From Moniliella sp. 'wahieum' (lineage: Eukaryota): DNA of 64,000 nucleotides. Shown here one piece after another: positions 32,440-34,510 of the stretch. The notes beneath the pieces are model-generated. The model was not told the DNA's origin, made no database searches, and worked only from the letters and a program-made list of their open reading frames with translations. The position numbers and the translations under genes are program-made. Location of the stretch: NCBI GenBank assembly GCA_003971905.1, contig RSEE01000065.1:62001-126000 (forward strand). The letters run 5' to 3'. Position 1 is the stretch's first letter, and every line of letters starts with the position of its first letter.

Positions 32440-34510
32440 AGAGGCAAAAGCCTGAGCCTGAGGGAGGCCAAGGGAGGCTTCAGTATACCAGTCTATCACT
32501 CTCAGCCGGAGGCGCCGCCTGAGGGAGGTCTGAGGATCTGAGGGGGCTTGAAGGGCTTGAAGGGCTTGAAGGGCTTAAAGCTTGAAGCTTGAAGCTTGAA
32601 GCTTGAAGCTTGACGCTTGACGCTTGAGGAGCTTGAAATCGTTCAACGTCCAACGTTCATTATCATTCCTTTCTCAAAGAAGCCTGGTCTGTGCTCGGGA
32701 TCTTCCCGGTTCCCATGGAGTCAAAGGCGTGACGGGTGACGGGTGACGGGTAACTAGGTAACCGGTAACCGGTAACTGTTTAATCAATCACCGATCATCG
32801 GATGTACACCGTCACGCGTCACACGTCAGAGAGCCTCAAGACCTCGATCAGTGTCTGGAGAGCAGGGTAGCCGGTAGGGCAGGGTTTGCTGTCGCATTAG
32901 GCCTTTGGCCCTACTTAGGGGCCTTGGTTCAAAAGGGTCACCTGGTCACCCGCACGCTTCAACCTTAGTTGTCCCCCAATTTCCCCACTCAGAAGCTCAG
33001 GCACACCCTGGCACAACGTGTAGCGTTTAATTTTTGTGTCTTTGTTACCAGCCACTATGCCCTACCTCTCTCCCGGACATGCGACCGGCAACTAGAGCGA
33101 CCTCCTGCAAGCCACATTTACTGTCTTTGCAGCTTGAGTACTTGGTACTTCAAGCTTCAAGCTTCATGCACTTGAGTGCATTGAATCAAATTGAGAAGAG
33201 TCTTGAAGCTTGAAGCTTGAAGCTTGAAGCTTGAAGCAGGAGTAGCATGGATAGGTAGCATCTTGAATGAGCTTGAGCTTGAGCGCTTGAGCAGGCTTGA
33301 AGCTTGACGCTCAGCTGAGCGCTGAGCGCTGAGGGCTTGAGGCCTGGGGATCTGAGGCTGGCGTTCGCAGACCATATGGCCAGGCTCTTGGTATCTATAC
33401 TCGGGACTGTGAAAGAATCAACAGCTCAGCACTATGATGCATGGTACAACCCTGCACATGATGCATGATGCATGTGACGTGTGACGTAGTGACACTAGTG
33501 ACTAGTGACTAGTGACTAGTTCTAGTGATATAGCGGCACTCCCCTATGGGTGATGCATGATGCATGATGTGAGATGCGTGAGATGGGTAATCGATAATCG
33601 ATAATCTCGATTAATCGATAATAGGCAATGCGTAGCGCATCATAATGGGGGCGTGTTTACTTTATGTAGTAGCACAAGTAGGGACTCTGATGTATGATGT
33701 ATGAGTATGATACAGATGCGTGATGGGCTACCAGCACGCCAGAGCACGCCGACCATCTGCTGCGTTGTTGCCACTGTTGCAACGCCACGACGCTGCCAGG
33801 GTACTGTTGTTTCACTCCGCCCAGGCAGCCACTTGCAGATGGGATCTACATAATGCAGAGCGTTGTGAAAACTGGTGCTGGAGCACACTTATCGGTAGTA
33901 CTCTGTACCATGTACCCAGGCTGCCAGTACATTTGAGCATGTGAGTACAGCGTACAGAATGCTGAGACTGAGCACGCACCAAGTCCTCCATCCGGTTTCT
34001 ATAGCCGGAACGGATACAGCCTGTGGCCGGTTGCCTGAGGCACAGGCCTGACTGACCTGAAGGCCTGAGATCTGAGACCCGATACAGCTTAATTACCGTC
34101 TAATATTTGATGCAATGTTAGTGATCGAAATGATCAGCGACTGAGCCGCAGTGCCTCCGCAGCGGTCTCCAACTGCTAAGCTGTCTCAACAGCACAAGCA
34201 AACTGGTAGCCGGTAAACGTTAAACTTAACGTTACCCGCGCTCAGCACTTTCCTAAGTACTAAACGTACTAACTCCTAAAAGCGTCCTTGCTTCCATGTA
34301 CGTTAGGCGTGGTAAACGTTAAACATCACGCGGCACGTGTCACACCCGGCTTGTTCGCTCTCGGAGCACTCGTCCCACGTTCCTGTGTCTGCTGGCGGGC
34401 TTGGCTCTGTTTGGCTTGGTTTTGGGCCCTACCATCAGGATGTGCATCATGCATCAACGGTTCGCCTTCACCTTCGCCTTCAAGCTTCAAGCTTCAGCTT
34501 CAGCTTCACC
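32440..34510. repeat. Large cluster of 7-bp-period palindrome+spacer arrays upstream of the Zn2Cys6 gene
   Basis: (AAGCTTG)5 at 32578-32612, (ACCGGTA)n ~32760, (TGAAGCT)4 at 33204-33231, (AGCGCTG)n ~33318, (ATGCATG)n ~33461 and ~33553, (ACTAGTG)n ~33494-33520, (ATCGATA)n ~33590, (AAGCTTC)n ~34482. Confidence 0.9.

Follow-up and report, generated by a model that had tools for sequence, protein, structure and literature searches.

Excision by hAT, Transib, RAG1 and Muta1 is described in PMC5499845 as leaving hairpins on the flanking DNA, which host enzymes of the Artemis type may open before end joining yields footprints. Short tandem arrays with several features of such footprints are present in a 64,000-nucleotide stretch of Moniliella sp. 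'wahieum' (contig RSEE01000065.1, positions 62,001 to 126,000; this whole stretch is called the window, and its own numbering is used below), among them those of block 32440-34510. The arrays consist of TxA triplets that carry one and the same spacer base x and are separated by a self-complementary tetramer, which we call the core; each unit of 7 bp is therefore a hexamer palindrome plus one spacer base. The new finding described here is that the two bases flanking the TNA return, as their inverted complement, in one half of each core.

Excision footprints of hAT, Transib and MULE elements and the P-nucleotides of V(D)J recombination share with the arrays a fixed-length direct duplication combined with a few inverted flank bases, a combination that classically marks a staggered break with hairpin ends. 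Such footprints are generally attributed to flank hairpins that are opened off the tip and then sealed by end joining (PMC5499845). The arrays differ in having period 7 and not 8, 9 or 5, a near-uniform fill of 2 nt and a strict T-N-A centre. Moreover, their units are iterated into arrays and clusters, and no element is found within the window. Target duplications of 7 bp are given in PMC12730594 for hAT7 in Pucciniales and for Kyakuja in Laccaria and other Agaricomycotina, which agree with the arrays in duplication length and in phylum (Basidiomycota). No homologue of these families was found in the window, and that paper gives consensus sequences without a table of target sites for either family.

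DDE transposases usually have symmetric targets in which any base may stand between T and A. Such sites are preferred by the dimeric transposases of PIF/Harbinger, which duplicates TWA, and NuwaII, which duplicates the TNA within C-TNA-G (PMC4482050), and the arrays resemble them in this respect. Those elements duplicate 3 bp, whereas the half cores here need 5-7 duplicated bases, and the C..G context (cores GATC, GTAC, GCGC and GGCC) is found in 11 of the 51 arrays, with GGCC occurring once. The transposon Tn10 has the symmetric hot spot GCTNAGC and makes 9-bp duplications. The (CNG)n repeats are expandable quasi-palindromic microsatellites of odd period, with a maximal palindrome plus one free base per unit. 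They are similar to the arrays in these properties and in that the single strand folds with one mismatch per unit; in the arrays, however, the rule is already present in founders that do not fold, the outer pair is T..A only and other periods show no effect. Intergenic direct repeats of the heptamer TAACTGA in Beggiatoaceae (PMC4679880) are likewise short 7-base arrays with stop triplets, but the likeness is superficial, the bacterial repeat being one fixed, non-palindromic sequence.

No description of palindrome-plus-one heptamer arrays in a fungal nuclear genome was found in a search of the full-text literature, outside which most subscription journals lie and which gives no proof of absence; a literal literature search for six of the 7-mers returned nothing. 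A sequence-only reading that preceded this work had pointed to heptamer repeats in Ustilago maydis, for which the full-text literature search brought up nothing relevant, so that the link stays unconfirmed. The Abr1 element of Agaricus has been associated with 7-bp duplications, again unconfirmed. It is classified as a hAT-type non-autonomous element (ABR1) in PMC10051438, which gives no duplication length. A paper on 'palindromic microsatellites' in Fusarium (PMC7218506) was rejected as a precedent because its available text concerns mitochondrial palindromes.

Counting TxA + self-complementary N4 + TxA with the same x gave 68 matches, which form 51 arrays, as compared to 2.45±1.57 (maximum 8) in 300 dinucleotide shuffles. 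Block 32440-34510 holds 31 of these matches (0.13 in shuffles) in 18 arrays. All counts come from one 64-kb window, and closely spaced arrays are perhaps not independent events. The sequence-only reading had described a hexamer palindrome plus one spacer base, repeated with period 7, with TNA junctions and many interchangeable cores; these counts bear the description out, and every array it listed is present where it had been placed or within a few bases. Two TxA triplets are found in 39 arrays, three in 9 and four or more in 3. Of the 16 self-complementary tetramers 13 occur as cores, AATT, TATA and TTAA being absent; AGCT and ACGT are commonest (9 of 51 arrays each), the AGCT arrays are longest, and copy number does not track core G+C content. 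None of the 51 arrays lies inside the 22.2 kb of Pfam-supported gene spans, the limits of which are approximations from Pfam hits. A repeat search of 27000-36000 showed that the arrays belong to no longer dispersed element.

The excess is restricted to palindromic cores. With one spacer, TxA-N4-TxA gave 117 matches at 83 loci, and N4 is self-complementary in 68 matches at 47 loci; by locus, 47/83 stands against a background of 6% (binomial p = 1e-34). The same motif with N2, N3, N5 and N6 gave 26, 57, 58 and 59 matches, with a palindrome excess in none. Since the 49 non-palindromic N4 matches are at the level of these other spacings, the whole period-7 excess is palindromic. The comparison suggested by the sequence-only reading, of the 16 self-complementary N4 with the rest and with periods 6 and 8, was made for this window and found N4 palindromes alone in excess. 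Cores with one mismatched pair account for 32 of the 49 non-palindromic matches (19.6 expected), the inner and outer pair being affected alike; point-mutational decay of perfect units would give such an excess. There are 22 perfect period-7 runs of at least 16 bp, whereas 200 block-wise dinucleotide shuffles gave 0.24 (maximum 2). In 15 of these runs the unit consists of a hexamer palindrome and one further base (about 11% expected), and each of the 15 hexamers has the form A....T. Perfect runs of this length at other periods number 11 for period 5 (3.9 in shuffles), 24 for period 6 (1.07), 1 for period 8 and 2 for period 9, and units that are maximal palindromes are not enriched in arrays of other periods in the window. 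Non-palindromic period-7 runs of at least 12 bp (102, with about 85 by a rough chance estimate) are near chance, which argues that the births themselves are palindromic. Among all 64 trinucleotides, TGA shows the strongest period-7 autocorrelation, with 67 pairs at distance 7 and a mean of 20.7 at other distances.

Several rules govern the arrays. The two spacers of a match are identical (GG 39, CC 17, AA 10, TT 2) and rarely complementary (GC 5, CG 2, AT 1, TA 2), from which it follows that a unit is a tandem copy and not a foldback; an origin by foldback or as a perfect palindrome was ruled out on this ground. The outer pair is always A..T: 68 hexamer palindromes of this class continue fully at period 7, as compared to only 5, 5 and 2, the chance level, of the C..G, G..C and T..A classes. 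Single 7-mer palindromes centred on TxA outside the arrays are not enriched (0.059, as compared to 0.056-0.065 at other centres), so there is no pool of pre-existing palindromic sites. Arrays start at TxA or 2 bases before it and end at TxA or 2 bases after it (chi-square p = 2e-6 and 4e-6, respectively), and their lengths cluster at 12-14, 19-20 and 26-27 bp. By our own count from the array table, 35 arrays have a purine and 16 a pyrimidine as plus-strand spacer; the corresponding numbers for the gene-free stretch that lies upstream of a plus-strand Zn2Cys6 gene are 19 and 7.

The new finding concerns the flanks. Among the 39 arrays with two TxA, the last two core bases recur immediately left of the array in 16 cases (p = 5e-10) and the first two immediately right of it in 20 (p = 2e-14), where 1/16 is expected by chance. 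At least one side is extended by 2 nt or more in 41 of the 51 arrays, and every array has an extension, if only of 1 nt, on one side or both. The commonest extension length is exactly 2 nt (19 left, 18 right), and a flank-matched end is retained in each of the 12 arrays that have at least three TxA. The pattern W5 + reverse complement of the last two bases of W5 + W5, with W5 = T.A.., occurs 41 times on the plus strand and 43 times on the minus strand. None of the 15 other combinations of first and third base exceeds a count of 9, and all counts above 5 come from the (GACTAGG) array listed below. Because the pattern is confined to T..A centres, generic microhomology template switching was ruled out. 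A founder is thus TxAcd-d'c'-TxAcd or its mirror, a 7-bp insert at abTxAcd with five bases in direct and two in inverted copy, and core bases that are arbitrary yet complementary point to templated synthesis or a structural constraint. The flank-matched half cores indicate that each unit duplicates 7 bp around a central TNA and includes a fill of 2 nt that resembles P-nucleotides. A structural constraint fails for founders: as single-stranded DNA the 12-mer founder does not fold (0 kcal/mol), while arrays of at least three units fold with a TxA triloop and one x-x mismatch per unit (-6.3 to -9.9 kcal/mol, z -3.5 to -4.7). As two-TxA founders cannot fold, hairpin-aided slippage cannot create the rule, and the palindromy is made at birth. 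Finally, two 4-nt palindromes between two TxA occur in two cases (45811 and 38487; 0.16 expected).

The arrays and related runs of block 32440-34510 are:

32544-32580: (GGGCTTGAA)x4, period 9, directly preceding (GCTTGAA)x5; the unit apparently lost GG at the transition
32578-32613, plus strand: AAGCTT-G x5 run with five TGA, core AGCT, at 32583-32613; 2-nt extension on the left only
32608-32627: variant (GCTTGAC)x2.9, after the AAGCTT-G array
32729-32751: non-palindromic (GTGACGG)x3.3, just upstream of the ACCGGT-A array
32757-32776, plus strand: ACCGGT-A with three TAA, core CCGG, at 32759-32775; left extension
32812-32821, minus strand: two TCA, core CGCG (ACGCGT-C)
33150-33166, minus strand: three TCA, core AGCT (AAGCTT-C)
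33204-33234, plus strand: five TGA, core AGCT; extended on both sides
33298-33307, plus strand: two TGA, core AGCT; followed by the AGCGCT-G array
33314-33333, plus strand: AGCGCT-G with three TGA, core GCGC, at 33316-33332
33459-33515, plus strand: compound run of ATGCAT-G, imperfect (TGTGACG) units and ACTAGT-G
33457-33474, plus strand: ATGCAT-G, core TGCA at 33459-33468; first part of the compound run
33494-33520, plus strand: ACTAGT-G, three counted TGA, core CTAG, at 33499-33515; last part of the compound run
33551-33569, plus strand: ATGCAT-G with three TGA, core TGCA, at 33551-33567; right extension only
33588-33606, plus strand: ATCGAT-A with three TAA, core TCGA, at 33588-33604; an extra unit with two TAA at 33612-33621
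34065-34077, plus strand: AGATCT-G with two TGA, core GATC, at 34066-34075; preceded by a single AGGCCT-G unit
34214-34225, plus strand: AACGTT-A, two-TAA founder, core ACGT, at 34214-34223
34254-34263, plus strand: two-TAA founder, core GTAC
34313-34322, plus strand: two-TAA founder, core ACGT
34447-34456, minus strand: two TCA, core TGCA
34480-34496, minus strand: three TCA, core AGCT; decays into (GCTTCA) hexamers

The C-spacer and G-spacer AAGCTT arrays at 33148-33222 together make a perfect 19-nt inverted repeat (one arm at 33204-33222) with a 37-nt loop, and a period-6 relative, (TGAGCT)x2.8, lies near the AAGCTT arrays at 33268-33284. Elsewhere in the window the following were found:

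6301-6331, plus strand: compound array; first part ACCGGT-G (6299-6324), core CCGG, four TGA, templated by the left flank GG
6301-6331, plus strand, second part: core TGCA, templated by the right flank TG; the last TGA is common to the CCGG part; with the units taken out, GGA-rich sequence with one TGA remains
6402-6411, plus strand: two TGA, core GATC
9378-9450, plus strand: perfect (GACTAGG)x10.4, the longest heptamer array, directly after the Iml2-like gene; it reads GGA + CTAG, the array grammar with G for the T of TGA, and has no predicted fold
9535-9553, plus strand: AACGTT-G with three TGA, core ACGT, at 9537-9553; just downstream of the Iml2-like gene
11674-11683, plus strand: two TAA, core CTAG; exact duplicate of the 7-mer AGTAACT
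12670-12679, plus strand: two TGA, core CATG; within an imperfect CATG/TGA-rich stretch (12640-12687)
13139 and 13329: runs related to the CATG/TGA-rich stretch
25523-25532, minus strand: two TTA, core TCGA
25681-25699, minus strand: ACATGT-C with three TCA, core CATG, at 25683-25699
27241-27271, plus strand: compound TGA units with cores ACGT, ACAT, ATAT and ACGT
27621-27787: four arrays upstream of the Ras-like gene, TCA/TCGA at 27621, TCA/CCGG at 27633, TGA/ACGT at 27674-27693 (AACGTT-G) and TCA/CATG at 27778
31989-32009, plus strand: ACGCGT units with mixed spacers (A, G, A); outside the 51 same-spacer arrays
32427-32436, plus strand: two TGA, core ACGT; exact duplicate of GTTGAAC, just left of the block
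41541-41550, minus strand: two TCA, core CATG; between the RPL18 and PTR2 genes
44565-46791: cluster of eight arrays upstream of PTR2, cores GCGC, GTAC (three), AGCT (two), CTAG and ACGT
45397-45408 and 45472-45485: AGTACT-G, upstream of PTR2
45811: TGA-AGCT-AGCT-TGA, both 4-nt palindromes kept; in the cluster upstream of PTR2
48379-48388, plus strand: two TGA, core AGCT
52042-52058, minus strand: compound array; core TGCA templated by the left flank CA and core GGCC by the right flank GG, with one TCA in common

Two tandem repeats of other periods were also recorded. At 25817-25965, between the lyase and Ras-like genes, an imperfect hexamer array (AAGGGG)x24 has a TRF score of 181, and at 51139-51214 the 15-bp unit CTCTCCTCACTAACT is present in 5.1 copies with 98% identity.

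The explanation that we tentatively prefer, though it may well prove wrong, is a mutational and not a functional one: the arrays would be scars of a staggered double-strand break centred on T-N-A and repaired by way of hairpin-type ends. The ends would go through a hairpin stage and be opened at two bases from the tip, as in the formation of P-nucleotides; Artemis opens hairpins mainly at this position. The duplex would then stop precisely at TxA and leave self-complementary 4-nt overhangs, cdd'c' at the left end and b'a'ab at the right end. If one overhang is kept and the other trimmed, the two mirror-image founders would result: seven bases would be inserted at abTxAcd, TxA and two bases of one side being copied directly and the two leftover positions being filled by the inverted complement, with TxAcd-d'c'-TxAcd or abTxA-b'a'-abTxA as the product. 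Keeping both overhangs would place two palindromic tetramers between two TxA, the form found at 45811 and 38487. The T..A restriction cannot come from the repair chemistry, because other centres lack the pattern, and must reflect the target preference of the cutting enzyme. The most plausible agent, proposed with still less confidence than the scars themselves, is a cut-and-paste DNA transposon that makes 7-bp target duplications and prefers a central TNA, the excision of which would leave a footprint. The target would thereby be duplicated and the new copy would be a perfect 7-mer palindrome; a second event at the duplicated site would add an exact 7-bp unit whichever overhang is kept. Arrays and clusters may thus have grown by re-use of the duplicated target or by ordinary slippage. 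Re-use that adds exact 7-bp units fits the quantised lengths and the flank-matched end in all 12 longer arrays. In the compound arrays 6301-6331 and 52042-52058, one original TxA may have spawned left-flank units leftward and right-flank units rightward, although this order is weak evidence because it is partly forced by the definitions.

Several observations weigh against the break-and-repair explanation. The searches of the 64 kb revealed neither a transposon that combines terminal inverted repeats with a 7-bp duplication nor a DDE transposase; among the 267 open reading frames, the one Pfam match of transposon type was the copia reverse transcriptase. A density of 51 arrays in 64 kb, with 18 of them in 2 kb, requires an agent that is very active or very site-faithful; a target that duplicates itself is the answer we would propose. 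End joining is normally messy, yet the products are very uniform and the 2-nt fill is dominant. The TNA preference of the published families with 7-bp duplications (hAT7, Kyakuja) is assumed. Furthermore, 10 of the 51 arrays have 1-nt extensions only. Single events should leave about 2.4 of the 39 two-TxA arrays with a 2-nt extension on each side; 7 have it. Any 2-nt extension is seen in 15 of 41 non-palindromic two-TxA arrays, and real 7-bp duplications with a non-palindromic core are few.

A scan for terminal inverted repeats with target site duplications of 3, 7, 8 and 9 bp gave only self-matches of the arrays at lengths 7, 8 and 9. The sole candidate with a 3-bp duplication, a 4.4-kb segment at 52343-56739, is unconvincing as a transposon, as it contains MFS and V-ATPase fragments and is bordered by a dispersed repeat. 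This repeat of about 230 bp is present in four copies with 73-84% identity (56517-56739, 47723-47953, 30528-30754 and, in reverse, 52336-52460); inverted copies bracket the 4.4-kb segment, with fuzzy ends and no clear target duplication. Three more dispersed repeat pairs of 170-225 bp and 79-83% identity were found at 13487-13664/10013-10182, 31028-31233/14037-13819 and 58889-59056/50602-50778. Self-BLAST and alignments within the window revealed no paralogous empty site among these four dispersed repeat families.

Of the rival explanations, the first is hairpin-aided replication slippage, in which palindrome-plus-one heptamers fold and stabilise slipped intermediates, so that only such units expand from random 7-bp duplications. 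The folding of arrays with three or more units agrees with this, as does the roughly geometric drop in the number of TxA per array, and slippage must contribute to the five-unit arrays and surely helps the longer arrays to grow. As the source of the rule it is nevertheless rather unlikely, since 39 of the 51 arrays are non-folding 12-mer founders that obey the rule already, which supports the view of the sequence-only reading that slippage explains copy number but not palindromy. Non-palindromic period-7 runs are near chance, as said above, and no like excess is seen at periods 5 and 9, which are also odd and allow a palindrome plus one, or at 4, 6 and 8. Nor is there a thermodynamic reason for the A....T restriction, array ends are phased and not random, no fold is predicted for (GACTAGG)x10, the longest heptamer array, and copy number is independent of core G+C. 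The sequence-only reading had offered two inferences, of which the recurrent mutational process, with a cut at TNA and hairpin or P-nucleotide fill-in, fits the flank-complement half cores, the identical spacers and the array ends on block boundaries. The other, selection for a protein that reads TGA-N4-TGA, is unsupported: the non-palindromic matches (49) do not exceed those at neighbouring spacings (57-59), single TxA-centred palindromes are at background and 13 different cores are in use.

More generally, the arrays could be selected cis-elements, for instance sites for a protein that recognises TNA triplets spaced 7 bp apart, insulators or other structural elements, or barriers with TGA or TAA in all three frames of one strand. 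Their complete absence from gene spans is in line with this, and every TNA is a stop codon on one strand, with period 7 covering all three frames within 21 bp; the plus-strand purine bias of the spacer and the leading place of TGA in the period-7 autocorrelation point the same way. We consider selection improbable as the origin, because no sequence-specific reader of the core is possible with 13 cores, neither TxA-N4-TxA lacking a palindrome nor the single palindromic 7-mer exceeds background, the arrays lie in both 5' and 3' gene flanks with mixed orientation outside the large block, and stop codons need neither a palindromic core nor flank-matched half cores. Exclusion from genes is equally expected of neutral scars purged from coding DNA. 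Footprints of a transposon that duplicates TNA itself (PIF/Harbinger or NuwaII type), with a core made of two bases from each inverted terminus, would also yield TxA + NN N'N' + TxA with equal spacers. NuwaII is found in two basidiomycetes among other hosts, and PHIS terminal repeats usually begin with GG, AG, A or G (both from PMC4482050); AGCT shares with ACGT the rank of commonest core. This origin is very doubtful, however, since the core co-varies with the flanks in 41 of the 51 arrays, which filler derived from termini would not do, 13 cores would need 13 termini, and the C..G context is the minority already noted, with GGCC, the core predicted for GG termini, seen a single time. Hardly credible, finally, is an artefact of assembly or basecalling, which the sequence-only reading had raised and for which nothing in the sequence speaks. 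Basecalling artefacts change bases at fixed motifs, and none known to us writes flank-templated 7-bp insertions; the arrays are diverse, have unique contexts and ordinary point variants (the 32 one-mismatch cores) and are absent from genes.

The setting of the arrays was derived from a Pfam scan of the 267 stop-to-stop open reading frames of at least 100 amino acids in the whole 64-kb window; a gene finder based on codon-usage log-odds was dropped because codon bias was too weak, with 11 reading frames passing. Matches were obtained to a PL14 polysaccharide lyase, an Iml2-like protein, NPC1, Pescadillo, a fumarase-type lyase, a Ras-like GTPase, a fungal Zn2Cys6 regulator, mitochondrial EF-G, acyl carrier protein, RPL18, a PTR2 peptide transporter, syntaxin-18 and a copia-type reverse transcriptase. 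The PTR2 fragment is 45-53% identical to its named relatives, which are mostly from Agaricomycetes and Ustilaginomycotina with a few ascomycetes. The Pfam content and the PTR2 matches thus indicate that the window is nuclear DNA from a basidiomycete to which no named species is closely related. The G+C content per 2 kb ranges from 48 to 65% across the window. A stretch of 7.7 kb (27.7-35.4 kb) contains no Pfam-supported gene, has a G+C content down to 48-53% at 28-34 kb and includes a (TCT)n tract at 29916-29980. Block 32440-34510 lies upstream of the plus-strand Zn2Cys6 gene within this gene-free stretch, whose right third holds the densest array cluster. The copia-type reverse transcriptase reading frame (61681-63276, plus strand; RVT_2, E = 6e-42) marks a retrotransposon at the right edge of the window. 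Rfam detected two tRNA genes (9882-9966, minus strand, and 58502-58573, plus strand); ARAGORN reported the second only, as tRNA-Thr (CGT), and the first, with 85 bases, possibly contains an intron.

Going beyond the break-and-repair explanation with a known kind of transposon, one may speculate, at rather long range, that a new transposase family or a domesticated nuclease with an nnTNAnn target is active in an unsampled basidiomycete lineage. It would feed on its own products, each event duplicating and perfecting its target, and would write 7-bp units made of TNA and a palindrome templated by the flank into intergenic DNA. The arrays may later have acquired a use, and the TGA/TAA strand bias upstream of the regulator gene can be read in this way.

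For annotators a caution follows, as the arrays resemble engineered restriction-site linkers (AAGCTT, ACCGGT, ACTAGT and others). They would also be highly polymorphic lineage markers. If the proposed origin is true, one enzymatic process has left a record of thousands of events in the intergenic DNA of this fungus; simple arithmetic from 51 arrays per 64 kb, which is an extrapolation and not a measurement, gives about 800 arrays per Mb. The pattern would then provide a sequence signature for finding the responsible transposase or nuclease and its TNA preference. It would also represent a family of short repeats that originates deterministically, through target duplication with P-nucleotide fill, instead of through chance duplication and later slippage, and, should the activity be a new one, a new rule-based route to the birth of microsatellites.

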